Virus record (IMG/VR): IMGVR_UViG_3300045988_117093
Location: 1 to 15,876 of that record
Source: a virus
Direction: 5' to 3' (one strand)
Length of the DNA: 15,876 nucleotides
The notes under the pieces were generated by a model. It saw only the letters and a program-made list of their open reading frames with translations, was not told the DNA's origin and ran no database searches. The position numbers and the translations under genes are program-made. Positions 2,003-15,876 of this stretch are shown piece by piece (position 1 is the stretch's first letter; every line of letters starts with the position of its first letter).

Positions 2003-2710
2003 TCACCAAACTTGTAAAAACAAATCTCGGCAAGCTTCTACAAGCTCTCTATTGATATTTTGTATTTGCTCGCGATATTCTTCAATTGCTTCACTTGTTG
2101 ATTTTCCTCTTAATCCTATCTCTTTCGTGTCTCTGTCTCTTTTGCTGTCTTTGTTGTCATTTCCTGTGTGGTCGTTTTTTGCGGTTGTAGTCGTGTTATT
2201 GACAGTTTCGCCTCTGCTCATAGCGCTCGCGTAATCTTGCGTGGCTACGGTAACTTGTGGGTTATCGCTATCAATATTTTGGTAGTTTTGGTTGTTTTTT
2301 ACTTCGCTCGTTCCTGCATCTGTTGCTTTTGTTGTTGTTTTTTCGTTTCCTTTTTCTGCTTCTGTGATTGTTATATTTACATTTGTAAAAGGGTTATCGT
2401 CTTGAATTGCATCATACAATTTTGCATAATATGGTATTAATTCATGCATTTTTGCCATGAAGGCAGTTTTCCACATTCCTAAAGTTTCAAAACCTATATA
2501 ATTATTCCAGTATCTAAGTAAAAAATATGTCTTAAAGGTATACAGGTCTTTTCCGTCCTCTGAATAAAATGGAAAATCAAAGTCAAAAAAATTCCCCTGT
2601 GTTTTGTCGATAATTCTTTGTACGGATAAGTCCATGCTCCATAGTTCTTGAGGTGGTATAAAGCTTTCACAAATTTCTTTAATAGTCGTTGTATATTTAC
2701 TCAATCTCAT
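2003..2710 (-). CDS. Lower collar protein, phi29 gp11-like (235 aa)
   Basis: FDFPFYSEDGK...IPYYAKLY and the C-terminal EYREQIQNINRELVEACRDLFLQVW resemble gp11 (DDFPFYDD...MPYYKQLY...LFMLVY). The gene sits after the portal gene. I prefer ATG 2710 (upstream AAAGGAAAAGAGGGTG, overlapping the portal stop) over the ORF-track ATG 2755, which has no RBS. Confidence 0.75.
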   Translation of the reverse strand: MRLSKYTTTIKEICESFIPPQELWSMDLSVQRIIDKTQGNFFDFDFPFYSEDGKDLYTFKTYFLLRYWNNYIGFETLGMWKTAFMAKMHELIPYYAKLYDAIQDDNPFTNVNITITEAEKGNEKTTTKATDAGTSEVKNNQNYQNIDSDNPQVTVATQDYASAMSRGETVNNTTTTAKNDHTGNDNKDSKRDRDTKEIGLRGKSTSEAIEEYREQIQNINRELVEACRDLFLQVW

Positions 2711-3596
2711 CACCCTCTTTTCCTTTTTGCATATATTTGTCTGGGATATATCCATTTAACATGGTAGGCAATTCACTATTGAAATCAACTGTCACATTTA
2801 GACCCCATAAGTCATTGATAGCATTTGCACATCTTCTTCTTAACGTCAGTCCTACGTTTCGATTTGCTTCTACCTGCCCGTTGTTTCCAGCCGTTTCACC
2901 CGTCACAAGACGTTCACCCTTTTCTACAGGGTTACTTTCATACCCTAAAGATGTTAATACTTGTGACCATAAATCTCTTAATTCCTGTTCGCATTTGTCC
3001 ACAATGTAAGGTGCGCCCAGGTCCAGTGCTTTGATGTCTTTCAAGTTTAATGAATCGGAAACTTTTAGAACAGGTAAATAATTATCATACATTTCCCCCA
3101 ATATTTCAAAGGATATTTTTTCATTATCGGAAGAAGAAAGCGCAACAGGTGTACGCTGTGCATACATATTAATCCCTTTTGTATTCCAAGTATTAGCCAT
3201 AGCATCAGCGTACATTAAAGCTTTGTAGTAGTACGGCATTGTTGAGTAGTTGCTCCATAAAATACAGCTATTTTCTTTTCCATATTCCTCTATATAACCG
3301 TTAGCTGTGTAAGCAATTCTATCTTGTGGTATATTGTAAATATCGGGCAACCCCGATAATGCAACTTTCATAAAAGCGTACCCTGCGATATCATCTTTGA
3401 TGAATACACCAAGTCCATGCCAAAATAGTGTTTGTTCAATGTACATTGGTAGAATTTCTTTAGGCAAATCATTCCATGTGTACCTATTTACAAATATGTC
3501 AAAAATATCGTAAAAGAAGATACTCTTAATTGTTTCAAAATCACTACTTTTCTTTTTATTGACATTTCGTTCAAAAATTCGCAATGGGTTTCTCAT
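2697..3596 (-). CDS. Portal / upper collar connector, phi29 gp10-like (299 aa)
   Basis: YTWNDLPKEILPMYIEQTLFWHGLGVF, NMYAQRTPVAL, APYIVDKCEQELRDLWSQVLTSLGY..EKGERLVTGE and INDLWGLNVTVDF parallel the gp10 blocks (FEWENLPPTINP.., NAQKTPVLI, APYVVDKL..EKKERMVTDE, INELYGLNVKVKF). Confidence 0.9.
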   Translation of the reverse strand: MRNPLRIFERNVNKKKSSDFETIKSIFFYDIFDIFVNRYTWNDLPKEILPMYIEQTLFWHGLGVFIKDDIAGYAFMKVALSGLPDIYNIPQDRIAYTANGYIEEYGKENSCILWSNYSTMPYYYKALMYADAMANTWNTKGINMYAQRTPVALSSSDNEKISFEILGEMYDNYLPVLKVSDSLNLKDIKALDLGAPYIVDKCEQELRDLWSQVLTSLGYESNPVEKGERLVTGETAGNNGQVEANRNVGLTLRRRCANAINDLWGLNVTVDFNSELPTMLNGYIPDKYMQKGKEGDEIE

Positions 3597-3612: not shown

Positions 3613-5229
3613 TTAATCGTTGGATAGTCCATAATTCCCTATATCGTCAGTATGCCACAAAGTTACACCGTTGTCAAATATATTTCGTAACTTTTTCAAC
3701 TGGTCTAAATCAATGTCCCCCGTAAATCCACAATGAGAAGTTTTCACGTAGTTCCAATAGACTCTTGAGTGTAGATAAGGTGTCACAATCTTATTGATTG
3801 GATATCCAAATTGCTCGAAAAAACTGTCCGCCATTTCCGCAAATTGTCTTTTACAGGACATTTCATAGAAATCAACACCGCACTCCTTGATACCTGTCAA
3901 TACATTTTCTGATAATGCTTTCCCGTGTGTCATCCCAGCATTTCTAGCTCTGTCTGTCTGATTGGCTAACATTCCAAGAGCGTCCCAAAAAGCGTTCGTA
4001 GTTTTCCCGAGTCCATTAAGACCACCTTGCAAGCTTCCTCCTGCTAAACCTGCTATCGCCGTGCCTGTTCCTAGAGTGGCATCGACAGCGGTATGAACTT
4101 GTGATAGAGCGATTGAACTTTTATTTTGAGCAAGCCACGCCCTGTAAGTATCGGAAGAAAAAGAACACATCGGAAAAGAGGAATTAATAAGTGCTTCACT
4201 CATTAGTCCATGCCCTAATTCTTCGCGCGTCTTATAATTTTTCGGTGCTGTCAAGACTTGCGGTAGCGTTGCAATTGTACCGTAGCTGTCAAACTCAAGA
4301 GACTTATCTCGGCTATAACTGTACTCATATCTATAGATATGTGTGTTGCCTTGATTGTTGTCAGCTAAACAAAATAACCACGGATAAGAGTATAACTTTT
4401 TATTTTTCGGTTTATATCCCTCGAATACATTGTCAGATATCTGCATAGATGTAATTTTAGGTTTTATCTCTTTTCCACCTAATGCAAGCGTGCATAATTT
4501 TGGCGACATAAATAATCCTATAACGGCATCTTGTGCACCTTGATTGTTATAATCTTCCAACAAAGTGTTAATTCCTTTTAGTCCATCTTCTGTAGTTACA
4601 TCATAATGTCCGATACTGCCCCAACAATAAACGCCATTTTCAACGCGCCCCTCAAACCAACTTTGCTCCGCTGTTCCTCTTGTTACAAAAGCGCAACACT
4701 CTGTTGGTGTTAAGTCTAATTTTTTGTGACGTGATACAATCGTTTCGCCTGTTTCTAGGTTAACAGGCGTTAGATTTGCTCCTATTTCGTCAGCACTTCT
4801 AGGGATATGATGATACTCTACAAAGCAAGGTTTGATATTTGCATCGTAAAAGTTATTTTGAAAAACGTCTAAGGAAAAGTTAATTCTAGTTGTTTTTTCA
4901 GAGAGCCACTCAATCGAATTAATAAAGCAAAATACCCATTCGTTAGAAATCCCACTATTTTGAAAAGCTAAATAATTGAGATTAAGTGCTTTCATTTCTG
5001 TGAACGGTACGCGGATATCATAACTTCCTACTTTAATCGGGGCAAGGTGTGACAAGTCAACACTATTGATATGTTTACGATATAACTCTAAATGATTTAG
5101 CAAATCTTCTTTTGAATTGTATAATCTAACGTGTTCATACTCGTCAGACCATGGTACCCCACTATACAATCTTAATTTTGTTTCGGGGTCGCGTGGTGCG
5201 ACCCCTCCCTGAACAGGTAAATTTATCAT
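3613..5229 (-). CDS. Tail knob protein, phi29 gp9-like (538 aa)
   Basis: The C-terminus FFEQFGYPINKIVTPYLHSRVYWNYVKTSHCGFTGDIDLDQLKKLRNIFDNGVTLWHTDDIGNY closely parallels the gp9 C-terminus ([53 protein letters not shown]). The N-terminal YLAFQN...WVFCFI block is also gp9-like. Confidence 0.88.
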   Translation of the reverse strand: MINLPVQGGVAPRDPETKLRLYSGVPWSDEYEHVRLYNSKEDLLNHLELYRKHINSVDLSHLAPIKVGSYDIRVPFTEMKALNLNYLAFQNSGISNEWVFCFINSIEWLSEKTTRINFSLDVFQNNFYDANIKPCFVEYHHIPRSADEIGANLTPVNLETGETIVSRHKKLDLTPTECCAFVTRGTAEQSWFEGRVENGVYCWGSIGHYDVTTEDGLKGINTLLEDYNNQGAQDAVIGLFMSPKLCTLALGGKEIKPKITSMQISDNVFEGYKPKNKKLYSYPWLFCLADNNQGNTHIYRYEYSYSRDKSLEFDSYGTIATLPQVLTAPKNYKTREELGHGLMSEALINSSFPMCSFSSDTYRAWLAQNKSSIALSQVHTAVDATLGTGTAIAGLAGGSLQGGLNGLGKTTNAFWDALGMLANQTDRARNAGMTHGKALSENVLTGIKECGVDFYEMSCKRQFAEMADSFFEQFGYPINKIVTPYLHSRVYWNYVKTSHCGFTGDIDLDQLKKLRNIFDNGVTLWHTDDIGNYGLSND

Positions 5230-5248: not shown

Positions 5249-6520
5249 TTATGACGCTTTTGTGAAACTTGCTGTCCCTGTGATAGTCTCGTCTGGTCTG
5301 TAAATTGCTTTCAGTACGATAGTTCCTGTCTCGTCCGCTCCCGTGTGTAACAAATGTGTTCCCGGTATTACATACGTCTTTGCAGAGGTAGCACCACTTT
5401 CCACCTCAAGAGTAACTAAATTCTGATGATATGTTCCTGTACCAGCTGTAACAGTAACCGCTACTTCTTGTGTCTCACCAGCTGTATAAGTTCCATCTGT
5501 GACACTCAGCGTCGGCGCTTTAACCACTGTATCGGTCGTGAATACACGGATTGGATAAAATGGACTAGCACTGACCATTTCTACTTGTGTATAGAAGTAG
5601 TTCCATGATAAGACATTTGCGAGTCGCTGGTCACTCATTTCTTTAAACTGGTCACGTACGTTGAAGAATCGCACGTCACAGAGAACGCCCTGTATCGCAC
5701 TATTCGCGAATTTGTCTACAATCACGGTCTGAACTGCTACGTCTGCCTTATCCATATGGAACGCATATGCTAAAGCGTCAACACTAATCTGTGCATTAAC
5801 TTCGGGTGTTGTAATCCAAATCAAGTTCGCTGGCATAGCGTGTGACGTTGCTCCTGCTGGATTGTTTTCTGGCAATGGGAAGCCAAACTCTCCAACTGCT
5901 CGTTTTACTTCAATCAATAATTTTTTCGCTGATGCCTCATCCACAATCGCGTCAACGGTTACTGCTGGAAGCACCTCTTTTTCATACCCGACATTAATCA
6001 AATCACGCATAGCGAGATATTCGTCCCAGTTCGCCCCTGTGATAGCGCTTTCCATTTTTGCCATAATCATATCACGGATACCGTACTCGCTTGTAAAAGC
6101 TTTTCTAAGATTGTCATATGTAACCGTCACAGGGTACTGAATTTCAAGATTGACATTATGGAACACGCTCATGATATAAGACTGATATTGCTGGAATGCG
6201 TATTTAAAATCTGCCTGTGAGTCATAAACATGTCCTTTACACATATTCACATAAGTTTCCTCATGTGTCTCACCGTATCGCATCGGGTCTTTTTTGAAAC
6301 GTGCTAACGGGTTTCTCCATGCGATGCTGTCTACCGTCTGCATACCGATACGATTAATTAATGACGGAACAATTTCGTTCCGAACAGGGGCAAAATTCAG
6401 AATGTTATCATAGACAGCTTGTAAATTGTCTGAGACTTCCACAGGCAAGTGGTTCTGAACCTCGAAAGAAAGTTCCTGTTTGACTGCTTTTAAAATGTTT
6501 TTATTTGTTGCGTCTGCCAT
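5249..6520 (-). CDS. Major capsid protein, phi29 gp8-like, with a C-terminal Ig-like domain (423 aa)
   Basis: SLINRIGMQTVDSIAWRNPLARFKKDPMRYGETHEETY parallels gp8 [38 protein letters not shown]. The last ~90 aa are Thr/Val/Gly-rich beta repeats typical of a BIG2-like decoration domain. Confidence 0.9.
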   Translation of the reverse strand: MADATNKNILKAVKQELSFEVQNHLPVEVSDNLQAVYDNILNFAPVRNEIVPSLINRIGMQTVDSIAWRNPLARFKKDPMRYGETHEETYVNMCKGHVYDSQADFKYAFQQYQSYIMSVFHNVNLEIQYPVTVTYDNLRKAFTSEYGIRDMIMAKMESAITGANWDEYLAMRDLINVGYEKEVLPAVTVDAIVDEASAKKLLIEVKRAVGEFGFPLPENNPAGATSHAMPANLIWITTPEVNAQISVDALAYAFHMDKADVAVQTVIVDKFANSAIQGVLCDVRFFNVRDQFKEMSDQRLANVLSWNYFYTQVEMVSASPFYPIRVFTTDTVVKAPTLSVTDGTYTAGETQEVAVTVTAGTGTYHQNLVTLEVESGATSAKTYVIPGTHLLHTGADETGTIVLKAIYRPDETITGTASFTKAS

Positions 6521-6534
6521 TTGTTAAATCCTCC

Positions 6535-6816
6535 TTACTCTGTTTTACCGTTAAAGTCTAAATCTTCCACGGTAATTTCTTCTGTTTCGTCTTTTGACTC
6601 GCCTTTATCATCTGCACGAGTCGTACCCTCTGCCATTTTTTCCTTAAAGCGCTTTTTATACTCGCTCTCTAGCTTTAAATACTTGTCTTTCCATTCGCTG
6701 TCTGTTTCTCCGTCTCTTTCTCCCTCATAATTCTGTAAAACTTCAATCGCGTCACCGTGTTCCTCAACGTCTGCTACAGCGTCAATTAATTCGCTTAATG
6801 CTTCTTTAAAATCCAT
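6535..6816 (-). CDS. Scaffolding protein (gp7-like by position and composition; 93 aa)
   Basis: A small, highly acidic, helical protein directly upstream of the capsid gene, with RBS AAGGAGGTAAATAA. This is a positional inference. Confidence 0.55.
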   Translation of the reverse strand: MDFKEALSELIDAVADVEEHGDAIEVLQNYEGERDGETDSEWKDKYLKLESEYKKRFKEKMAEGTTRADDKGESKDETEEITVEDLDFNGKTE

Positions 6817-6866: not shown

Positions 6867-7874
6867 TCACCACGGAAAGAAAAAGTAAAGTGGCATTTTT
6901 GTTTTTCGTGTATGTGGGTGTACTGGATATGGCGATAATGTTTGCAAATACGCATACCATTTTAGCGCGTTCTTTTTTCTGTCCTCTTCTTTTTCCACGC
7001 CTGCACGCTCGAAATTTTTTAAAAATACTGACGCTAAATAATCGGGTTCTTTTGTGGACTTTCGAAACTCCTCCCATGATATTGGATATTTTGCTGTTTC
7101 TATCCATTGTCCGCTACTTACAGTTTCTTCATCGAGCCATACACATTGATAGTAACCATCTGTGATATCATACCCGTGTGCATTCGCCCAGTCTGTATAG
7201 ACTGTTGCTGGTGTCCACTGGACTAAACCATAACCACCATTATAATTTCCCTCTTTTAGCGACTGCCATAGCTCTGGGTTAATATTGGACTCTATCTCCA
7301 TATTTCCCAACATTCCAGCTATTGCATTCAAGGTAAAATCTTTAAAGAACATCGTGCTATAGAGTACATAAGCATTATTTTTCATTTCATCGTCTGTCAA
7401 ATAACGGTTTCCGTGAACCCACTCAAGGGGCATTCCAGCACTATCTCCATAACGATATATCTTTGTCCATGCGGATGGTTTTGACACATAATTATTAATA
7501 CTTACTTGGTCGGGTAAGGGATATCGTCCACTGTGTGCACCCATGGTAACTCCTCCATTTCCTAAGCCTGCCCCTTGATAGACCATTTCTGTATGTCCAC
7601 TACGCCACACGATGTCCCCAGCTTGCCACGCTTCATTAATGTTAATTTCTTTAAACCCAGCTTGTAATAGATAGCCCTCTTCTGTCCTTGTGGTGAACCA
7701 TGGGTTCGAGGAAAAGAACCCTGCTTCTGTAAGTGCTTTTGAGATAAAAGAACTGCAATCGTAATAAGTAATACCGTTCACGGTCTGACCTCTTCTGTAT
7801 TGTTGTGAGTATCCAATGTTAGGAGCATTACAGGCATTGACCGCCCACTGGTATGCAACATTGATATTTGGCAT
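6867..7874 (-). CDS. Tail-associated peptidoglycan hydrolase: N-terminal Cys-peptidase (NlpC/P60 or CHAP-like) plus C-terminal phage-tail-lysozyme-like domain (335 aa)
   Basis: A YDCSSFI (Cys) ... GDIVWRSGHTEMVY (His) dyad sits in the N-terminal half. AIAGMLGNMEIESNINPELWQS...GGYGLVQWT in the C-terminal half resembles the tail lysozyme motif seen in the phi29 gp13 N-domain. RBS GGAGG lies 8 nt upstream. Confidence 0.75.
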   Translation of the reverse strand: MPNINVAYQWAVNACNAPNIGYSQQYRRGQTVNGITYYDCSSFISKALTEAGFFSSNPWFTTRTEEGYLLQAGFKEININEAWQAGDIVWRSGHTEMVYQGAGLGNGGVTMGAHSGRYPLPDQVSINNYVSKPSAWTKIYRYGDSAGMPLEWVHGNRYLTDDEMKNNAYVLYSTMFFKDFTLNAIAGMLGNMEIESNINPELWQSLKEGNYNGGYGLVQWTPATVYTDWANAHGYDITDGYYQCVWLDEETVSSGQWIETAKYPISWEEFRKSTKEPDYLASVFLKNFERAGVEKEEDRKKNALKWYAYLQTLSPYPVHPHTRKTKMPLYFFFPW

Positions 7875-7890
7875 TTTACTACCCTCCGTA

Positions 7891-7930
7891 AAAATGTTTC
7901 ACGTGAAACATTTTTTGTTCCACGTGAATA
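7891..7930. promoter_or_regulatory. Palindromic motif locus d: perfect 24-bp palindrome plus a degenerate second CACGTG site
   Basis: AAAATGTTTCACGTGAAACATTTT (7891..7914) and GTTCCACGTGAATA (CACGTG at 7921..7926), with centres 21 bp apart. Both lie in the 60-bp gap between the endolysin stop and the tail hydrolase RBS. Confidence 0.6.
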
Positions 7931-7934
7931 ATCA

Positions 7935-8924
7935 TTAAATCGTGTATAACATATCTTTCGCGTAAACGATTTCAATTCCACAAGCGCGCGCCAGTCCTCC
8001 GCCAAATGTTCCTGGGTGTTCCACCCCGTTCGGGTCTTTCCCCTGCAATAAGCATAAGATTTCAAGCGCTGTGACTAAGTACTGTGTTTCCCCTCGTTTC
8101 ACATAATGCCGACCTGCTTTCGCTTTTGTCTTTTTACCAACAAGTCCGTCCTCTGCAATCGTACGGCCGTAATCCATGTTCATAGCATGTTGCACTACGC
8201 GCACCGCCATTCTTTTTGTGTTTCTTCCAACAATGCCGTCAACTGCGATTTGAACACCTGTAAAATTAATGGCGTGTTGCTGTCCCATGGCAACCAGTTC
8301 ATTTCTTGGGGTTGTGTGCGTTGGTGGACTCTGTGGAACATTAGGTACAAGATTTGAAGTTCCATAGTCTTTATAAACATGGTTCACATCACATCTGCCA
8401 TTAATACCGTCAACAGTTCCATTACTGGAATACTGCCAAATGTCTACATTGTCTACACCTAACACATTCGCATACCGAGCAATCCACAAGTCATATCCCC
8501 AAGTCTCACCGATGTATTTTTCGTACCACGATTTACTAGCGTAAATTCCAGCTTTATATCCATGCGTCAGCATAGCATCACAAAAACGCTTTGCGTTGTG
8601 CTTTGCTACAGACTGTGTTCCTTTTTCCTCGCTGTCGAAAAATACAGGTAAATTAGGAGTGTGCCCCTGTAATAATCTAAGGCAGTGATTGATTTCACCC
8701 TCAATTCTAGCTGTTGTTTTTGCGTAGGAATAAAAATAAACCCCATATGGAATACCCAATCGCTCGCATTCACTCACGTTTCGACTCCATTGTTTATCGT
8801 CTTGTGATGTCATATCCTGTCCATATCCGCATCGAATAATCACATAATCGACAGCGTTTTTTAATCGTTCAAAATCAATCACTCCATTATGATACGAGAT
8901 GTCAACCGCTTTTTTTACACTCAT
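7935..8924 (-). CDS. Endolysin: GH25 muramidase plus C-terminal PG_binding_1-like domain (329 aa)
   Basis: DISYHNGVIDFERLKNAVDYVIIRCGYG, FDSEE and IWQYSSNGTVDGINGRCDVNHVY are typical GH25 blocks. A Pro/Thr linker follows, then DGIVGRNTKRMAV...DGLVGKKTKAKAG repeats typical of the peptidoglycan-binding domain. Confidence 0.9.
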   Translation of the reverse strand: MSVKKAVDISYHNGVIDFERLKNAVDYVIIRCGYGQDMTSQDDKQWSRNVSECERLGIPYGVYFYSYAKTTARIEGEINHCLRLLQGHTPNLPVFFDSEEKGTQSVAKHNAKRFCDAMLTHGYKAGIYASKSWYEKYIGETWGYDLWIARYANVLGVDNVDIWQYSSNGTVDGINGRCDVNHVYKDYGTSNLVPNVPQSPPTHTTPRNELVAMGQQHAINFTGVQIAVDGIVGRNTKRMAVRVVQHAMNMDYGRTIAEDGLVGKKTKAKAGRHYVKRGETQYLVTALEILCLLQGKDPNGVEHPGTFGGGLARACGIEIVYAKDMLYTI

Positions 8925-8927
8925 TTT

Positions 8928-9152
8928 TTAATCCTCCTTTTTCTGTTCAAATGTATCACAAATGCGCTGTAACGCAAGTGTGTTATTATTCACTGCTTCT
9001 GTAATGTCTGACATTTCTTGCTTGTGTGACTCGTTTAGTTTATCCATGCGTGCGTCATTCTTATCTTCTCGATATTTCACATACCACATAGACGCAATTG
9101 CTACAACTGTAGGCAGTCCCAACGTGTTAATAGCTGCCATGATTTCTTGCAT
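8928..9152 (-). CDS. Holin, BhlA/UviB-like (74 aa; one N-terminal TM plus a charged coiled tail)
   Basis: TM segment LGLPTVVAIASMWYV is followed by KYREDKNDARMDKLNESHKQ. The gene lies immediately upstream of the endolysin and is translationally coupled to it, with RBS GGAGG 7 nt upstream. Confidence 0.6.
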   Translation of the reverse strand: MQEIMAAINTLGLPTVVAIASMWYVKYREDKNDARMDKLNESHKQEMSDITEAVNNNTLALQRICDTFEQKKED

Positions 9153-9172
9153 GATACCACCTCCTTTTTTCT

Positions 9173-9201
9173 ATCATAACACAAATAGAATTATTTGTAA
9201 A
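9173..9201 (-). promoter_or_regulatory. Candidate late (lysis plus structural operon) promoter
   Basis: On the minus strand: TTTACA (9196..9201), 17-nt spacer, TGtTATGAT (-10 at 9173..9178). The predicted start near 9166 leaves only ~2 nt before the holin SD, which lowers confidence. Confidence 0.45.
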
Positions 9202-9202
9202 T

Positions 9203-9353
9203 AAAAAATGTTTCACGTGAAACACTATCACGTGAAACATATTGTACGTTACAAAATAATCAATGCAAAGGGAACGCAACGCCAAAAATTGATATCAGAC
9301 TACTTGTCTATGTGCGTGTATATCAATTACAATGCCTGTATTATTTTGGGTAC
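9203..9353 (-). ncRNA. Candidate ~150-nt structured small RNA (possible pRNA analogue); hypothesis only
   Basis: It has a consensus promoter upstream and a predicted start at G 9353. A 5'/3' closing helix is formed by 9340..9348 with 9252..9260 (9 bp) plus GUAC 9350..9353 with 9244..9247. An inner hairpin pairs 9320..9327 with 9288..9295. A palindrome hairpin plus U6 sits at the 3' end. The region has no ORF. Confidence 0.3.
9209..9240. promoter_or_regulatory. Palindromic motif locus c: full site plus adjacent half site
   Basis: TGTTTCACGTGAAACA (9209..9224) and ctatCACGTGAAACAT (9229..9240), with centres 15 bp apart. The locus lies directly upstream of the -35 at 9196..9201. On the minus strand the full site is followed by T6 (9203..9208). 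Confidence 0.6.
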
Positions 9354-9359
9354 GATATT

Positions 9360-9388
9360 ATGATAACATATATCATTTGAAATGTCAA
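9360..9388 (-). promoter_or_regulatory. Near-consensus extended -10 promoter in the ATPase-holin gap
   Basis: On the minus strand: TTGACA (9383..9388), 17-nt spacer, TGtTATCATAAT (-10 at 9360..9365). The architecture is nearly identical to the ITR promoters. Confidence 0.65.
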
Positions 9389-9406
9389 TGTTTCACGTGA
9401 AACATT
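9387..9406. promoter_or_regulatory. Palindromic motif locus b: perfect 20-bp palindrome
   Basis: AATGTTTCACGTGAAACATT overlaps the ATPase stop codon (9405..9407) at one end and the -35 hexamer (9383..9388) at the other. Confidence 0.6.
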
Positions 9407-10448
9407 AAAAAGATATCACATCAAATATCATGTTCTTACACTCTAAATTTTCAAACAGAAGTAACCCTCTGTTAAAATATTCTCGTAACATTGTAACAAT
9501 GTAATGCGTTGAATTGACACGAATAGCCGTATTATCTATGACATCAGTTTTTGTAAAGCATATCCTTGTTGGAAAACTATCGTCCGCCCCTGTTGCCACA
9601 TATAGGCAAACATCATATTTTCTGACATTATATAAATTATCATTATATTTAATTGTACAAATATAACGAGACTGCCCACTTGGTTTACCAATCAAACATT
9701 CGTTATCGTTTAGATATTTGTTTTCGCTCGCATATTCGTTATATTCAGCACCTCGAAAAGCTCTTGCAATAGCACTTTCTTTATACGCGGTTGAAGCGCT
9801 TTCATTATAAGTTCTTTCAAACACCCAACCATCACCACGTAAAAATTTGGTGTCTCTCTTTAACATTTTATTGATACCAAACACGCTATAATAAGGGTTT
9901 AACAAAGATACTGTATTCGATGCCATATATAGCATAACTCTCCTGTGCTGTTTACCGTGACCCGAACTAATTGTAGTGAGCAACGATAATAATTTGTTTA
10001 CTTCGTTTGGTAAATATATATTATCTTCATCTTGGTATTCGTCAAAAAACACAGAACGAATATTGACAAACAACCCACGCATTTTTTTATACTTTCTCGC
10101 TACGGACAAAGCTAAGCAATAACCACACGGCTCTTCATTGATAAATAACTGTACTAATGCACCTCGCATCAAGCTTTTTTCAGTCATAACATAACCGTCA
10201 AATTTTTCCGCTATATCCCCAAAATAGGTATCAGCACAGTTTTTCATATCAACAACATTACGATATAAATAAATGAACTGATTTTCCGGTCTGTATTTAT
10301 CTTTTAAAAAGTCAGAAACTTGCCGACACTTAATAGAATAACTTTTACCCGCTGTTCTGTTGCCGTCCACAATAAAAATGTCGGGTGTATTCCCGTATTT
10401 ATCTTTCATAGTTAATAATCTCTCACAGTGATAATAACCATCATTCAT
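9405..10448 (-). CDS. DNA encapsidation (packaging) ATPase, phi29 gp16-like (347 aa)
   Basis: Walker A GNRTAGKSY, QFIYLYRN, Walker B SVFFDEY, YLPNEVNKLLSLLTTI and NTVSLLNPYY parallel gp16 (GARGIGKSY, QFIYVRRY, TIVFDEF, YIPNEVSALLNLMDTV, NAVSVVNPYF). I chose ATG 10448 (GGAGGTG 9 nt upstream). The ORF-track start at 10478 lies inside the palindrome half site. Confidence 0.92.
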   Translation of the reverse strand: MNDGYYHCERLLTMKDKYGNTPDIFIVDGNRTAGKSYSIKCRQVSDFLKDKYRPENQFIYLYRNVVDMKNCADTYFGDIAEKFDGYVMTEKSLMRGALVQLFINEEPCGYCLALSVARKYKKMRGLFVNIRSVFFDEYQDEDNIYLPNEVNKLLSLLTTISSGHGKQHRRVMLYMASNTVSLLNPYYSVFGINKMLKRDTKFLRGDGWVFERTYNESASTAYKESAIARAFRGAEYNEYASENKYLNDNECLIGKPSGQSRYICTIKYNDNLYNVRKYDVCLYVATGADDSFPTRICFTKTDVIDNTAIRVNSTHYIVTMLREYFNRGLLLFENLECKNMIFDVISF

Positions 10449-10465
10449 AATTTTAGCACCTCCAT

Positions 10466-10478
10466 TCACGTGAAACAT
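10466..10478. promoter_or_regulatory. Palindromic motif locus a: half site
   Basis: attCACGTGAAACATTT has a perfect right half. It lies between the early terminator and the ATPase RBS. Confidence 0.45.
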
Positions 10479-10488
10479 TTATTTTATA

Positions 10489-10515
10489 AAAGAGGTGGCA
10501 TATAGCCACCCCTTT
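10489..10515 (-). terminator. Intrinsic terminator at the end of the early (replication) operon
   Basis: The minus-strand RNA AGGGGUGGC-UAUAU-GCCACCUCU gives 9 bp including one G-U, followed by UUUAUAAAAU. On the plus strand the same position is an A-C mismatch, so the hairpin is oriented for minus-strand transcription. Confidence 0.7.
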
Positions 10516-10554
10516 AGAAGAAGAGAATTAAAATGGTATTCTCACGACATCATT

Positions 10555-10905
10555 TTATAAATTTGATACATCTAAGGTACAATTGATATAATCGCGCCCT
10601 GCTTTTGTCTTTCCACTAATTTTAATGATAGAAAATTTTTCACCGTCCATAACACTTTCAATATCTTTCAAAGACTGTCTAAAGGTTGCGGACTGTCCCG
10701 AATAAACTTTCTTATCGGGTGTGATAATACTCACAATCTCCTGCACGTCTCCGTTGTCTTTGATGTCATTAAAAATGATAAAACCGTCAACCTCGATAGA
10801 CTGCCCGTCATCAATATTTTTTAATGGCTCAATGTCGGGTGCTGTGGTCATTAAATACTTTTCAACCTTTGTAAACTCTCTGCTCATTTCTTTAATTTCT
10901 ACCAT
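10555..10905 (-). CDS. Putative ssDNA-binding protein, phi29 p5-like (116 aa)
   Basis: Size and pattern resemble p5: IVSIITPDKKVYSGQSATFRQSLKDIESV...FSIIKISGKTKAGRDYINCTLDV versus TTIFAADGSLYSAISKTVAEAASDLIDLV...FKVKVVQGTSSKGNVFFSLQL. This is a by-eye match only. Confidence 0.5.
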   Translation of the reverse strand: MVEIKEMSREFTKVEKYLMTTAPDIEPLKNIDDGQSIEVDGFIIFNDIKDNGDVQEIVSIITPDKKVYSGQSATFRQSLKDIESVMDGEKFSIIKISGKTKAGRDYINCTLDVSNL

Positions 10906-10929
10906 GTTATTTACCTCCTGTTTTTCCTT

Positions 10930-11229
10930 TTAATCTTCCTTTTTCATTTCCTGTAACTCTGCTTCGGTAACAATTTTTTCGCTCTTGACATCAGAATTGA
11001 GTAAAAACTGCTCGTCCGTCATTGCGCGTTTTTCCAATTTAAATTTAATATCTAAAATAGAAACAATATCTCCTTTGTACTGCTTTTCAATCAAGATTTC
11101 CGCTTTGTCTCTAGTCCTGCAATTTGGCAGTTTTTCGTCAAAGCAATCTTTCTTGATTTCGCCTGTCTCCTTGTCTTTGTAGACTCTTTCTACAGATACC
11201 TCCGCTGTGACTAATGTCCTTGTAAACAT
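10930..11229 (-). CDS. Putative dsDNA-binding / origin-organising protein, phi29 p6-like (99 aa)
   Basis: EKQYKGDIVSILDIKFKLEKRAMTDEQFL versus p6 KRKYKGEPVQVVSVEPNTEVYELPVEKFL. The size is similar and both have an acidic C-terminal tail. This is a by-eye match only. Confidence 0.45.
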   Translation of the reverse strand: MFTRTLVTAEVSVERVYKDKETGEIKKDCFDEKLPNCRTRDKAEILIEKQYKGDIVSILDIKFKLEKRAMTDEQFLLNSDVKSEKIVTEAELQEMKKED

Positions 11230-11297
11230 CTTGTTTTCCTCCTTTTTTCTGTGTTCTGTGAGTGTGAATGCAATGTAATATGTTTTATTACATTATT

Positions 11298-11326
11298 ATA
11301 ATATCACATTCATAAAATAATTGCAA
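11298..11326 (-). promoter_or_regulatory. Extended -10 promoter (copy B of the duplicated promoter)
   Basis: On the minus strand: TTGCAA (11321..11326), 17-nt spacer, TGaTATTATAAT (-10 at 11298..11303). Confidence 0.65.
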
Positions 11327-11329
11327 GTA

Positions 11330-11569
11330 TTATTTTATAACTTTTCTGCTATCTTTTGATTGGCATTGCATAACACCAAACTTGCTATTAATTATTCTTT
11401 TATACTGTTCTTTTGTTAAATTGCTCATGGTTGCCCCTCCAACCCAATAACAAAAACTCATAGGGTACTCACTATTCATTTCTTGATTGCTCAATCCTGT
11501 TAAATGTATGCTATCAGTATCCGCATAGCATAATCTTTCTTTATTTTCTAAAGTATCAATCATAAACAC
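11330..11569 (-). CDS. Open, RBS-equipped fragment paralogous to the DNA polymerase C-terminus (79 aa; possibly a gene remnant)
   Basis: NKERLCYADTDSIHLTGLSNQEMNSEYPMSFCYWVGGAT aligns with polymerase NKERFCYADTDSIHLIGLEDAEMVIEHPTNFCCWGCEAT, then MSNLTKEQY with MSKSAKEQF. The KTY-containing segment is deleted in frame. Start is GTG 11569 (6 nt after GGAGG) or ATG 11563. Confidence 0.6.
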   Translation of the reverse strand: MFMIDTLENKERLCYADTDSIHLTGLSNQEMNSEYPMSFCYWVGGATMSNLTKEQYKRIINSKFGVMQCQSKDSRKVIK

Positions 11570-11637
11570 CTTTTTCCTCCTTTTTTACTTACTTAACTGT
11601 GAATTGCAACGTAATATGTTTTATTTATTACATTATT

Positions 11638-11666
11638 ATAATAACACATTCGTAATATAATTGAAA
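11638..11666 (-). promoter_or_regulatory. Extended -10 promoter (copy A), directly after the polymerase stop codon
   Basis: On the minus strand: TTTCAA (11661..11666), 17-nt spacer, TGtTATTATAAT (-10 at 11638..11643). Confidence 0.6.
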
Positions 11667-11669
11667 GTA

Positions 11670-13556
11670 TTATATTGTAACTTTTTTATCTTTTTGCTGA
11701 TGTATCTTAAATGTTTTATTCCTAAGCACAATACCTCCTTTTACTCGCTCTGACTTTAAATTACAGTTATACAATTCCAAATCTGTAGTTAATTCTTTTA
11801 TGTCACGGTTTTCTGCAATGAACTGTTCTTTCGCTGATTTGCTCATGCCACACGCTTTAATATCTAAATATGGTGTATCAACTGACTCTCTGTTCTCGGC
11901 TACAATATGTTCTGCATATGTTTTTTGTCGCTCATAATATGCAAAGTCAAATGTTGCCTCGCAACCCCAACAGCAAAAATTTGTAGGATGCTCAATAACC
12001 ATTTCCGCATCTTCCAAACCAATCAAATGAATACTATCAGTATCAGCGTAGCAAAATCTTTCTTTATTTGCTAATGCGTGCCTTATCGTAAAATTCATAG
12101 CGTATGATGTAATGGCAGAACCTATCGGAATATATCCAACTCCTTTTTCATGCTCCTCGTGCAAGATAAATCTAACAACACCGTTTTCATCAAGATATGG
12201 CTCTTTATAAGATGAGTTATCAGACATTGCAAATTTTCCATAAAGGTTATTCAAAAACAGTTTTGCCAACTGACGAGAAAAGCCTTTACTGTTCTTTTTC
12301 ATTTCTGCATACTTATCAATATAAGCATCAAAAAATCCATCACGGGCATAAAACCATACATAATCATGTATCTCTAAATCATAAATTTCATAAGTATCAT
12401 TAAATAATTCCCAGTCTGTGCAAGTCATGGTCAATGTTACTTTTGTGTCGCACATATTACCGTCAGCGTCTCTATAATATCTATAATATTGCCCTTTGTA
12501 TCTAACATCAGATGTATATAAATTTTCGTTCGACTTGTACAATGCACTATGTCTAATATGCACCCAGGGAAAAGCGTTCTCTTTTACTCTAAATCTACAA
12601 GTAAAGCGGATAAAATAATACTTATTATCTGCTTTTACTAAATCTATAGGTGGCGCTCCTTTGTGATATTCTCCATGTCCAAATGGGTATTTATTGCCAC
12701 TCATGCTATGCATCATAGACGGATAAAGAGAATTTACATCATATACAAGACCCTCTCCGACTACAATATGTGCAAATTTTGGGTTCAGATAGCACCACCC
12801 ACCGTGATACGATTTATGAACATAATCCCAAATGTTCCATACACCCGTCACATCTTCGTCTAAATAATCCTCTCTTAAATCAGGGAACAATCTTTTATAA
12901 TCCTTTAAATCATAATCTGCTTTAAATTCTGATAAACAACAAGAGCCGATTGTGAGCTTTTGATGTCCCGCATCAAACATCATTTCAAGAGCTTCTTTTA
13001 ATACTAGTACATCATTTTCAATATACTTTTTCTCTTCTTCCGTGATGTTACAATATGCATATCGCATACCTGTATAAACCATTTCTAACTTTTTATGCTT
13101 TGTCTTAAAAGATTTAGCTATGTTATTGAGTGATGATGGCATTAATTTCAACGAGTTTCGTATTTCGATAAAGTTCTTGTTCCATTTTAATTTTATCCAG
13201 TACCACGAACCCAAATCTGAAATACAAGTCTGAAAAGTCTTACTTCTCATTTCCTTATCTTTACAATGTACCCATTTCCAGTTCTCTTTTAATAAAAAAT
13301 CAACAATAAAAGAACCGTCAAAAGATAGATTATGAAAATATAATATATTGTTGCCTCCCATGGTTAAAAACCGATTTAAAAAGTCTCTAATCGAATGAGT
13401 AATTGTAACTGTTTCACTGTTATCATAAAGAGCAACGTCAGCGGCAGACCATACCTCTGTACAGTCTTGCTTTTTTCTTAATTGGTTTTCTAATTCCTCT
13501 CCCCACACGGTCGTCTCGAAATCGCAAGCCCAATATGTAACATTTTTCTTTTTCAT
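11670..13556 (-). CDS. Protein-primed family B DNA polymerase, phi29 gp2-like (628 aa)
   Basis: ExoI CDFETT, ExoII YFHNLSFDGSFI, ExoIII YIENDVLVLKEAL, motif A DVNSLYPSMM, motif B KLFLNNLYGKFA, motif C YADTDSIHL and KxY QKTYAEHI all closely parallel phi29 DNA polymerase. Confidence 0.97.
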   Translation of the reverse strand: MKKKNVTYWACDFETTVWGEELENQLRKKQDCTEVWSAADVALYDNSETVTITHSIRDFLNRFLTMGGNNILYFHNLSFDGSFIVDFLLKENWKWVHCKDKEMRSKTFQTCISDLGSWYWIKLKWNKNFIEIRNSLKLMPSSLNNIAKSFKTKHKKLEMVYTGMRYAYCNITEEEKKYIENDVLVLKEALEMMFDAGHQKLTIGSCCLSEFKADYDLKDYKRLFPDLREDYLDEDVTGVWNIWDYVHKSYHGGWCYLNPKFAHIVVGEGLVYDVNSLYPSMMHSMSGNKYPFGHGEYHKGAPPIDLVKADNKYYFIRFTCRFRVKENAFPWVHIRHSALYKSNENLYTSDVRYKGQYYRYYRDADGNMCDTKVTLTMTCTDWELFNDTYEIYDLEIHDYVWFYARDGFFDAYIDKYAEMKKNSKGFSRQLAKLFLNNLYGKFAMSDNSSYKEPYLDENGVVRFILHEEHEKGVGYIPIGSAITSYAMNFTIRHALANKERFCYADTDSIHLIGLEDAEMVIEHPTNFCCWGCEATFDFAYYERQKTYAEHIVAENRESVDTPYLDIKACGMSKSAKEQFIAENRDIKELTTDLELYNCNLKSERVKGGIVLRNKTFKIHQQKDKKVTI

Positions 13557-13558
13557 GA

Positions 13559-14251
13559 TTATTCTCTTTCTATAATATTATCTTGCATATTTATAAATTG
13601 TTGGAAATCCTCACTATTTTCAAAAAATTTCATTTTTTTAAGAATATTTGAAAAAACTGCATCAATCGTTGCTTTATCCATGTATGGCTCAGTTGGGAAT
13701 ACTTCGGGTGCATTTTTATATGTGTAGCCAAACAATGCTCGTTCTGTGTCAGTAGCAGTAGCCAGTAGTGCGTCTGTTTTCATTCTTAAATAATGTGCTG
13801 TAAATGGTACAAAACTATCTAAACTATCATACCACATATCAATATATAGGTCATAATCGGGTACTGGTGCAAAGTCACGTATTAGAACACCTGTGGATTT
13901 TAATTCTTTTAACCCTTTTAAAGTGGTAATATTATTTTGTCGAGCATAATCCTGTTCAAAAGGTACTAACGATGCAAAAACTCTGTTCAAAGCTAATACA
14001 TTTTTTCTTTCCTTTTCTGATTTAATAATAAGCTCGCCTGTTAATAAATTAACAACGGGTGCGTTTTCTTTAATCACTTTCGCTGTCTGTTTTTTAAGCT
14101 TTTCAATACTTGTCTTTTTCGGTACTTTTACTTTCTGTATCGCCTTGACTAGCACGCCTTGCTCGACCTGTCTTTGTACACGTCTTAAATAATTCTTATA
14201 CTCTTTATTGTATAATTTTTGTAATTCAGATACTTTCCTTTTTCTACTCAT
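13559..14251 (-). CDS. Putative terminal protein (230 aa)
   Basis: The gene lies immediately upstream of, and is coupled to, the protein-primed polymerase, as in phi29 genes 3 and 2. It has a very basic N-terminal third and a size in the TP range. I used ATG 14251 (AAAGGTGA upstream); the ORF-track start at 14257 is TTG. I recognise no sequence motif. Confidence 0.55.
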   Translation of the reverse strand: MSRKRKVSELQKLYNKEYKNYLRRVQRQVEQGVLVKAIQKVKVPKKTSIEKLKKQTAKVIKENAPVVNLLTGELIIKSEKERKNVLALNRVFASLVPFEQDYARQNNITTLKGLKELKSTGVLIRDFAPVPDYDLYIDMWYDSLDSFVPFTAHYLRMKTDALLATATDTERALFGYTYKNAPEVFPTEPYMDKATIDAVFSNILKKMKFFENSEDFQQFINMQDNIIERE

Positions 14252-14435
14252 AATCAATCACCTTTTTCAATAATAGACCATTAGGGACACGTGTATACTC
14301 GATATAATCTCCTGCGTGTATATCTAAATCTCGAATTGCTTCTTTTGGTATCATAACTCGTGCGGTATATCCGCCTGTTCCGCCTTTTGTAAACATTACT
14401 TTGTAACGCAATAATTGGTTTGTTAATTTTGCCAT
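14244..14435 (-). CDS. AbrB/SpoVT (MazE-like swapped-hairpin) DNA-binding protein (63 aa)
   Basis: ARVMIPKEAIRDLDIHAGDYIEYTRVPNGLLLKKV fits the SpoVT-AbrB consensus (v-IPkeir..l.i..GD.ie......g.i.l.k). It overlaps the TP start by 8 nt. Confidence 0.6.
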   Translation of the reverse strand: MAKLTNQLLRYKVMFTKGGTGGYTARVMIPKEAIRDLDIHAGDYIEYTRVPNGLLLKKVIDYE

Positions 14436-14449
14436 GTGTTTTTTCCTCC

Positions 14450-14917
14450 TTATAAAAGATTAAAGACTTTCCATGTGAATTGTGAAAAATGTTCAGCTAT
14501 ATATGATACAGAAGATAAGAAAAGATATAGTAAAAATGTTGCCATGATAACGACGGACAAAATGCCTAAGAAAGAGGATATCTTTTCTAGTTTAGTGTAT
14601 GGCTCTTTTTCTTCTTCTATAGGTGCGTGCCTTTTTATCCAGTCTATTTCACTTTCATGTAATGTTTCACGTGAAACCTTTTCTGTATAAAGATTGCTAG
14701 ACGTGTCTGTCTCTATATAGTCTTTAATTCCATCTGTCGGATTGACGTAGCTCTGTCCATCAAAACCCACATAAATGTTTTTATTAGTATACAAATTTTC
14801 TACCCAGTATGGTGGGTCAACGAATAAGGATATGTAGTTGTTTAGTGAATTTTCAGTATAGAAGTCGTGCAATTCTACCCCAAAATCTGTAATGTTATGC
14901 AATCTGTATTGAATCAT
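14450..14917 (-). CDS. Early membrane-anchored protein with a C-terminal TM helix (155 aa)
   Basis: Hydrophobic segment ISSFLGILSVVIMATFLLYLFLSSV near the C-terminus, with RBS AAGGAGGAAAAATAA. I recognise no family. Confidence 0.6.
   Translation of the reverse strand: MIQYRLHNITDFGVELHDFYTENSLNNYISLFVDPPYWVENLYTNKNIYVGFDGQSYVNPTDGIKDYIETDTSSNLYTEKVSRETLHESEIDWIKRHAPIEEEKEPYTKLEKISSFLGILSVVIMATFLLYLFLSSVSYIAEHFSQFTWKVFNLL
14661..14677. promoter_or_regulatory. Palindromic motif locus e, inside the membrane-protein CDS
   Basis: AATGTTTCACGTGAAAC encodes ..VSRET.. in the 155-aa protein. It is the only copy inside a coding region. Confidence 0.45.
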
Positions 14918-15139
14918 TTATTTTTCCTCCTTTAAATAATATCTTTTTTTCCAATCATAATATAAGGCTCTAATTTTTTTCTCTTCTTCACTGCGCTCCG
15001 TTTCAGTAAAACTCGATAACTCTAAAAACGCTAAAAGTCTACCTAAATTACTTGACATAGCTATAATTGCATTATCATACAAACCTATAGAAATGTCTAG
15101 TTTAAATCTTTCATACTCTTCATTATATTTCTCATTCAT
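14918..15139 (-). CDS. Hypothetical early protein, paralog 2 of a tandem pair (73 aa)
   Basis: MNEKYNEEYERFKLDISIGLYDNAII...LGRLLAFLELSSFTETERSEEEKKIRALYYDWKKRYYLKEEK aligns end to end with the upstream 78-aa protein. Confidence 0.7.
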   Translation of the reverse strand: MNEKYNEEYERFKLDISIGLYDNAIIAMSSNLGRLLAFLELSSFTETERSEEEKKIRALYYDWKKRYYLKEEK

Positions 15140-15368
15140 TTATTTTTTCCTCCTTTGAATAATATCTTTTTTCCCAACAATTACACAATTCACGCAATTT
15201 ATTTTCTTCATTATCTCTCTCGTCCTCTGTGAAGTCTGATAGCTCTAAAAAGGTAGATAACCTACCAATTTGTATAGCCACTGCTACTAAAGATTTATCG
15301 TATAAACCTAGCTCTATATCTTGTTTACATAATTCATACGCTATTTTATATTTCTCATTCATTATCAT
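15132..15368 (-). CDS. Hypothetical early protein, paralog 1 of a tandem pair (78 aa)
   Basis: Homologous to 14918..15139 at both protein and DNA level. GGAGG lies 7 nt upstream of ATG 15368. Confidence 0.7.
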   Translation of the reverse strand: MIMNEKYKIAYELCKQDIELGLYDKSLVAVAIQIGRLSTFLELSDFTEDERDNEENKLRELCNCWEKRYYSKEEKINE

Positions 15369-15835: not shown

Positions 15836-15876
15836 AGATCGGAAGAGCGTCGTGTAGGGAAAGAGTGTAGATCTCG
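15836..15876. other. Illumina TruSeq adapter remnant (reverse complement)
   Basis: AGATCGGAAGAGCGTCGTGTAGGGAAAGAGTGTAGATCTCG is the exact reverse complement of 1..41. Confidence 0.97.

Follow-up and report, generated by a model that had tools for sequence, protein, structure and literature searches.

The palindrome that recurs at five loci of a 15,876-nt phage genome, the whole stretch of IMG/VR record IMGVR_UViG_3300045988_117093 (hereafter the window, to which all positions refer), is by its sequence the consensus chromosomal parS, i.e. the predicted site of the host partition protein ParB (Spo0J), and not a novel operator of the phage. The window holds what is essentially a complete genome of a phi29-like podovirus, nearly all of whose genes lie on the minus strand; family assignment revealed neither a ParB nor a ParA domain in any of its proteins. 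Since the phage encodes no ParB, the binder would be the ParB/Spo0J of the host. The explanation as a whole, that host-type parS sites are recognized by host ParB/Spo0J and allow forespores or daughter cells to receive the phage genome, is regarded as probable. The identification as parS rests on the match to the consensus, the precedent of phage phi29, a scan of other phages, enrichment over shuffled sequences, conservation among relatives, a phi29-like gene set lacking ParB, and indications of the host.

Copies of the palindrome and their match to the parS consensus

The 12-mer core TTTCACGTGAAA was present in four exact copies (nt 7897, 9211, 9391, and 14665) and, at the five loci, in three further copies with one or two mismatches (nt 7918, 9226, and 10464); one unrelated match with two mismatches was located at nt 1451. 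None of 200 dinucleotide-preserving shuffles reached eight matches to the core (shuffle mean, 1.46), and CACGTG occurred eight times against a shuffle mean of 2.2, with seven of the eight inside the motif. Inspection of the local sequences bore out the loci, coordinates and counts of the original prediction, including the count of CACGTG and the recurrence beyond chance, with two corrections: the palindrome at the first locus is perfect, as stated, but spans 26 bp instead of 24, and the copy at nt 10466–10478, which had been taken for a half site, is present but represents a perfect site that has suffered a 7-nt deletion and lies outside the ATPase gene.

The chromosomal parS consensus has been reported as TGTTNCACGTGAAACA in Bacillus subtilis and Corynebacterium and as TGTTTCACGTGAAACA in Hyphomonas (PMC7022226), and the same 16-mer has been used to locate parS in gut Clostridia, all of which carried ParABS with 1 to 10 sites per chromosome (PMC10197239). 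This published consensus, TGTTNCACGTGAAACA, served as the reference for the 16-mer scan. In the window, three sites had no mismatch, one had one, one had two, and two had three, i.e. three perfect copies of TGTTTCACGTGAAACA and four degenerate copies, which were designated parS A to parS E2 (Table 1). The shuffle expectation was 0.0 sites at up to one mismatch and 0.28 at up to three, versus four sites at up to one mismatch in the window. When the core sequence was searched in full-text literature, nearly all papers found dealt with ParB/parS, and Noc sites (ATTTCCCGGGAAAT) were absent from the window.

Four of the loci fall at module junctions, as had been noted (early terminator to ATPase, ATPase to promoter, promoter to holin, and endolysin to tail hydrolase). 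ParS E1 is flanked by the endolysin stop codon on one side and the ribosome-binding site (RBS) of the tail-hydrolase gene on the other. The predicted proximity of two loci to -35 hexamers also held: parS C adjoins the -35 TTGACA of the promoter of a small RNA (see below), and parS D2 is 7 nt from the -35 of the late promoter. The ATPase gene most likely starts at nt 10451 behind a GGAGG RBS; therefore, parS B lies 5′ of this RBS and outside the gene. The fifth locus, parS A, is situated inside an early open reading frame (ORF) upstream of the genes for an AbrB-like protein, the terminal-protein candidate and PolB.

Conservation of the sites among metagenomic relatives

A search of IMG/VR with the ATPase gave 80 contigs at 88% to 99% identity (clade A) and one at 58%; a second search brought in the clade of the latter contig (clade B, L080 to L105) and a third, more mixed set (L106 to L110), while a scan of IMG/VR for the exact motif gave at least 119 stretches. 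In clade A (L001 to L079), nearly all genomes carried the motif at the five loci of the window, and the 79 near-complete genomes had a median of four perfect 16-mers and six sites at up to two mismatches. The aligned sites were nearly invariant while their flanks varied: parS E1 was almost unchanged across 70 relatives, a perfect parS occupied the place of parS B in most relatives, and the coding copy, parS A, was unchanged although the codons just upstream of it were highly variable. Positional conservation, which the original prediction had proposed to check in related genomes, was thus observed, with sites steadier than their flanks, and extended to approximately 110 relatives overall. Conservation and the parS match together agree with its proposal of a sequence-specific site for a dimeric DNA-binding protein, for which a host-encoded binder had been allowed.

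In clade B, a 26-bp parS-containing unit, CTTGATTCATGTTTCACGTGAAACAT, was present in one to four tandem copies between the late promoter and the holin gene, and one further site was located about 10 nt before the RBS of the AbrB-like gene. Examples of the tandem units are at nt 5984–6077 of L100 and nt 6595–6662 of L081, and their copy number varied between near-identical genomes. The third set was heterogeneous, with three sites in L109 (including one each in the early and late 5′ leaders), two in L107, and none in L106, L108 and L110. Across 482 sites in 112 genomes, 74% were non-coding, compared with approximately 13% non-coding DNA in these genomes, and the median distance from a site to the next ATG was 24 nt.

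Conservation was also seen just outside the 16-mer, with an A before it in 93% and a T after it in 91% of 175 unique contexts (taken from L001 to L111; L114 7513), giving AATGTTTCACGTGAAACATT. These flanks could reflect a preference of the host ParB or descent of the copies from one another. The third clade possesses another repeat family, whose units, TTGTTATATAACAA and TATAACA, are found next to early promoters and past the small RNA (L108, nt 490–530, 1645–1680, and 7055–7080; L109, nt 470–520, 6385–6410, and 6451–6464), which may be the operator set of some regulator.

Occurrence of parS in cultured phages

As summarized in PMC2731898 (from Meijer et al. 2005), phi29 of B. subtilis has five parS sites; host Spo0J binds them and by this means moves the phage genome to the prespore, where it becomes entrapped in the spore. 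The suggestion of a novel phage operator was therefore not sustained, the sequence being that of textbook chromosomal parS and its presence in phi29 having already been published. Our own scan found four perfect sites in phi29 and two in Nf, also a B. subtilis phage. Seven sites, three perfect and four with one mismatch, were found in the Clostridium perfringens phage phiCPV4, mostly as tandem pairs 25 to 26 bp apart at intergenic junctions. One perfect site each was detected in CS229P2 (Clostridium symbiosum), CH17P1 (Hungatella) and CI55P1 (Clostridium_AQ), one site with one mismatch in CI644P1 (Clostridium innocuum), and one perfect site plus one with one mismatch in Athos (Enterococcus). 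The same scan gave no site in GA-1, Karezi and three actinobacterial phi29-like phages.

Predicted host and role of the sites

The closest cultured relative of the window phage was CS229P2, which infects C. symbiosum (PolB, 47% identity), and the hosts of the nearest cultured relatives were C. symbiosum, Hungatella, and C. innocuum. Among the matches listed from a genome collection, a near-identical contig was binned in a Clostridia metagenome-assembled genome, the one other match being weak and irrelevant. The host is thus probably a spore-forming gut Clostridia species. A cognate ParB, which the phage lacks, would be available in this likely host group, since gut Clostridia possess ParABS (PMC10197239).

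We infer from the sequence that ParB binds the phage sites, and the steps that would follow are taken from the established mechanism of ParB. ParB dimers would nucleate at each 16-bp site, whereupon ParB bound to cytidine triphosphate would close into clamps and slide onto the adjoining DNA; with three to five strong sites in 15.8 kb, the resulting partition complex could cover the entire genome. For ParB to spread, the DNA substrate must be closed, and proteins bound to the DNA can stop the spreading (PMC7053999). The phage DNA would thereby be tied to the origin-segregation apparatus of the host (ParA/Soj and SMC), and the infecting genome would survive in the forespore or in daughter cells when the host sporulates or divides instead of lysing. 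By analogy with phi29, such entrapment in spores or daughter cells is the most likely benefit.

Several observations weigh against this explanation. Phage phi29 pairs parS with Spo0A boxes (TGTCGAA) at its early and late promoters, which suppress the lytic cycle. Spo0A boxes were not enriched in the window, where a single TGTCGAA was found inside the endolysin gene (178 of 200 shuffles had at least one), and therefore the full spore-entrapment kit of phi29 is not reproduced. The host of phage Athos, an Enterococcus, does not sporulate, so that spore entrapment cannot be the only use of phage parS, and the lack of any site in the close relatives L108 and L110 indicates that the sites are dispensable for lytic growth. 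Finally, the non-coding, start-proximal placement could signal an added transcriptional or translational role and not pure partition, or may simply show which places tolerate a 16-bp palindrome.

The use of parS by phages was already known from two Bacillus phages, phi29 and Nf. Small gut podoviruses that form a large uncultured group (more than 100 contigs) are added here as carriers, together with cultured phages that infect Clostridium, Hungatella, and C. perfringens. The points of interest are this breadth among podophages of gut Clostridia, the unusual density and tandem placement of the sites, and their rapid gain and loss between close relatives. If the proposed carriage operates, strictly lytic gut phages could persist and spread within Clostridia spores, with consequences for phage-host dynamics in the gut, person-to-person transmission, and the treatment of spore-formers (e.g. 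C. perfringens) with phages. Annotators should label a perfect TGTTTCACGTGAAACA in a phage genome parS instead of novel operator.

Alternative explanations

Two related alternatives accept the sites as parS and place their effect in gene expression. In the first, host ParB would act as a lysis-versus-dormancy switch that, when abundant or active, silences the whole 16-kb genome, thereby replacing the Spo0A boxes of phi29. Copies or arrays of parS are found on the -35 of the small-RNA promoter, within the late-operon leader, and shortly ahead of the genes for replication and packaging, where they would be suitably placed for such a switch, and ParB clamps might be retained on the linear genome by its protein-capped ends. 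Were this true, gain, loss, or change in copy number of parS would tune how "temperate" a strictly lytic phage behaves; we consider it unlikely.

In the second, the selected function would be transcriptional, with host ParB silencing replication, small-RNA, packaging, and late genes through sites beside promoters and RBSs, and thus acting as a sensor of host state that restrains the lytic cycle. Such a role would account for the excess of non-coding sites and their short distance to start codons, for the one to four tandem parS of clade B that separate its late promoter from the first late gene and the site just before its AbrB/terminal-protein/PolB operon, and for the sites in both leaders of L109; parS C adjoining a -35 and the lack of enrichment of Spo0A boxes, the repression device of phi29, also fit. 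However, a 16-bp palindrome is accommodated most easily in non-coding DNA, which in packed genomes is always near start codons, and three of the four perfect sites of phi29 are within genes. Silencing as the selected function is therefore held to be quite improbable.

A role of the sites as RNA, in which they would be terminators, attenuators, processing sites, or 5′ stabilizers and owe their sequence identity only to common descent, was weighed on the predicted folds. The U-runs that had been noted on the minus strand after the hairpins at nt 7891 and 9209 are present. ParS E1 and E2 together can fold into a 13-bp RNA hairpin with U5 behind it on the minus strand (-17.2 kcal/mol; z, -4.4), and D1 and D2 form a terminator-like hairpin (-18.5 kcal/mol), followed by a U-run, at the 3′-end of the small RNA, exactly where this RNA should end. 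Both tandem pairs thus fold into 13-bp hairpins with U5 to U6 on the coding strand, none of 200 shuffles folded as well as they did, and many copies are situated just 5′ of RBSs. As the sole role, however, this does not extend to the remaining copies. The fold of a lone site is weak (-8.9 kcal/mol), that of the coding copy does not surpass the shuffles (z, -0.8), and no U-run follows sites A, B, and C or the arrays of clade B; in clades B and C and in L110, this small RNA ends in unrelated terminators of the ordinary kind. Moreover, all bases are conserved, including the would-be loop ACGU, with no compensatory variation in the stem, which is a signature of protein-DNA recognition, and conservation of the 16-mer extends to unrelated phages and to bacterial chromosomes. 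Of the RNA element put forward originally, the U-tailed hairpins of the tandem copies therefore stand, while a function as RNA alone appears very unlikely. Because both tandem pairs form such hairpins, a side role of the D and E pairs as intrinsic terminators, which would be compatible with their being parS, is considered plausible, though less likely than not.

Also very unlikely is a phage operator network in which the sites are bound by the 63-aa regulator of AbrB/MazE fold and switch early to late transcription, since the sequence equals the host parS consensus and does not co-vary with this protein. In its favor, the AbrB-like protein is the sole recognizable DNA-binding protein of the phage and passes the Pfam MazE/AbrB threshold (27.6 versus 24.7 bits), its gene occupies the position of p4 in phi29, a clade B site lies about 10 nt upstream of the RBS of this gene, and two window loci are beside -35 boxes. 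Nevertheless, the AbrB-like proteins of L108 and L109 are 89% identical, yet these genomes have zero and three sites, respectively; L110 encodes the protein and has no site; and sites occur without an AbrB-like gene (tblastn, E ≤ 0.1) in phi29, Nf, phiCPV4, Athos, CS229P2, CH17P1, and CI55P1. One window site and three of the four perfect phi29 sites are, in addition, within coding regions. The target of the AbrB-like protein is thus not the parS motif, and neither the proposed binder nor the p4-like early/late switch of the original prediction found support, the motif being present also in coding sequence and in phages with quite different regulators.

When motif counts were set against AbrB-like genes across the clades and cultured phages, no linkage was observed and the AbrB operator was rejected as a candidate. 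Likewise, no other phage protein was common only to motif-bearing genomes, and the ORFs specific to L109 had no counterpart in the compared motif-bearing genomes. The AbrB-like gene precedes and overlaps the terminal-protein candidate gene, and its product is kept in all three clades at 38% to 88% identity.

A small RNA resembling packaging RNA

Between parS C and the D pair, just downstream of the ATPase gene, a conserved structured non-coding RNA was recognized that is preceded by a near-consensus promoter. Although its sequence has diverged, it can be recognized, at approximately 110 to 116 nt, in clades B and C as well as L110 (L081, approximately nt 6368–6480; L108, nt 6922–7037; L110, nt 6250–6364). 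The terminal helix had changes on both sides at 11 of its 13 pairs. Consensus folds made for each clade share a long bulged 5′/3′ helix and a three-way junction, together with two hairpins, one long with an internal loop and one short, so that the architecture is common to the three clades, with compensatory changes within clades. A cross-clade RNAalifold gave no more than the terminal helix, the middle of the RNA being misaligned, and folds per clade were needed. Read by eye, the internal loop and the loop of the short hairpin are mutually complementary in every clade, with differing sequences: ACGCA/UGCGU in clade A, CGUUA/UAACG in clade B, CCCA/UGGG in clade C, and GGAUA/UAUCC in L110.

The prohead or packaging RNA (pRNA) of phages with a gp16-type ATPase is approximately 120 nt long and has a long 5′/3′ helix, a three-way junction, and two complementary loops for ring formation, the loop-loop complementarity being a hallmark of phi29 pRNA. 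By these features, the small RNA looks like a pRNA. Neither for the window nor for four relatives did Rfam yield a family match to it (E ≤ 1 and E ≤ 10; hits at chance level only), and the minimum free energy z-scores of single sequences were not significant. In the window, the parS D pair is the apparent terminator of this RNA. A similar promoter-driven structured stretch is located beside the ATPase gene of the Hungatella phage CH17P1 (L114, approximately nt 2100–2240, minus strand).

Genome organization of the window

The features of the window are listed in Table 1. Scans with promoter consensus sequences gave strong promoters at both termini and at nt 9388–9360 and 9201–9173 of the minus strand. 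The candidate early terminator was read from sequence and fold and was not listed by the terminator scan; its sequence is unrelated to the motif and it is kept in relatives. The 232-aa ORF had no family match, and it is a candidate for the terminal protein by its place before PolB and its weak similarity (23% to 37%) to the ORF at the same position in relatives. No tRNA was found in the window, and no near-identical cultured phage was found by megablast, which gave matches only to adapter sequences at the window ends.

Table 1 Predicted parS sites, genes, and transcription-related features of the window
Feature	Position (nt)	Strand	Remarks
Connector, gp10	2697–3596		
Tail knob, gp9	3613–5229		
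Capsid, Phi29_MCP	5249–6520		
Tail lysozyme (tail hydrolase)	6867–7874		
parS E1	7895–7910		Perfect TGTTTCACGTGAAACA; centre of the 26-bp perfect palindrome, nt 7890–7915
parS E2	7916–7931		Degenerate, TGTTCCACGTGAATAA; 2 mismatches; centre 21 bp from that of E1
GH25 endolysin	7935–8924		
Holin	8928–9152		
Predicted late (holin) promoter	9173–9201	minus	TTTACA-17-TATGAT with upstream TG; directly downstream of parS D pair
parS D2	9209–9224		Perfect; upstream of the -35 of the holin/late promoter; T6 follows on minus strand
parS D1	9224–9239		Degenerate, ACTATCACGTGAAACA; 3 mismatches; centre 15 bp from that of D2
Structured non-coding RNA, ~110 nt	9241–9353	minus	Between parS C and D pair
Strong sigma-70-type promoter	9360–9388	minus	TTGACA-17-TATCAT with upstream TG; drives the small RNA; kept in relatives
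parS C	9389–9404		Perfect; begins 1 nt past the last base of the ATPase stop codon
Packaging ATPase, Podovirus_Gp16	9405–10451		
parS B	10462–10477		Remnant, CCATTCACGTGAAACA; 3 mismatches; between early terminator and ATPase RBS
Candidate early terminator	10491–10515	minus	G+C-rich hairpin with U-run; just upstream of parS B
phi29-SSB-like protein	10555–10905		
PolB (DNA_pol_B_2)	11670–13556		
232-aa ORF, terminal-protein candidate	13559–14257		
AbrB/MazE-fold protein, 63 aa	14244–14435	minus	
parS A	14663–14678		TGTTTCACGTGAAACC; 1 mismatch; within 155-aa early ORF, there encoding VSRET

The Illumina adapter CGAGATCTACACTCTTTCCCTACACGACGCTCTTCCGATCT was present at both ends (nt 1–41 and 15836–15876), and therefore the contig probably reaches the true ends of a linear genome. 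Inward from nt 42 and 15835, an inverted terminal repeat is identical over approximately 69 nt and continues near-identical through the terminal promoters and RBSs. A 79-aa ORF (nt 11330–11569, minus strand), just downstream of the intact polymerase gene, is a duplicated PolB fragment with 60% identity over 43 aa, including the YADTDS motif. Two adjacent early ORFs, at nt 14918–15139 and 15132–15368 of the minus strand, encode clear paralogues of 73 and 78 aa, both of which read MNEKY...DI..GLYD...FLELS.FTE.E..EE.K.R.LY..W.KRYY.KEEK.

Comparison with known systems

Like the window, phi29 encodes a terminal protein (a candidate in the window), PolB, a gp16 ATPase, a phi29-type capsid, a connector, and a tail knob, and has several copies of the same 16-bp host consensus in a genome of 16 to 19 kb with no phage ParB. 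A parS directly against the stop codon of the packaging-ATPase gene was found in four separate lineages, namely the window (parS C), L107 (nt 4795), CS229P2 (L235, nt 5780–5795), and phi29 (L113, nt 17243–17258); this shared site could be due to ancient inheritance or to convergence. The two phages are distant kin, with approximately 34% identity in PolB and less than 35% in the major capsid protein, and they differ in that the window has nearly all genes on one strand, sites that are mostly intergenic and often in tandem pairs or arrays by promoters and RBSs, symmetric half-sites (TGTTTC), no enrichment of Spo0A boxes, and a host that is probably an anaerobic gut Clostridia species and not Bacillus, whereas the half-sites of phi29 are a mix of TGTTCC and TGTTTC and most of its perfect sites are in genes. 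The p4 sites of phi29 are also palindromes near promoters, and in phi29 the gene of a small regulator likewise sits right before that of the terminal protein; however, the sequence of the p4 sites is unrelated, the window has no p4 homologue, and its motif is not linked to the AbrB-like gene.

With the chromosomal parS/ParB (Spo0J) system of Firmicutes, the window shares an identical consensus, TGTTNCACGTGAAACA. Chromosomes have 1 to 10 sites in several Mb, clustered near oriC (PMC10197239), whereas the phage has three perfect and four degenerate sites in 15.8 kb, some with centres just 15 to 26 bp apart, on a replicon that is a linear, protein-primed phage genome. Repeated centromere sites are likewise carried by mobile replicons among phages and plasmids, in the partition cassettes of P1, N15, and F (SopB/sopC). 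These elements encode their own ParA and ParB with private specificities, while the window phage encodes neither and copies the site of its host.

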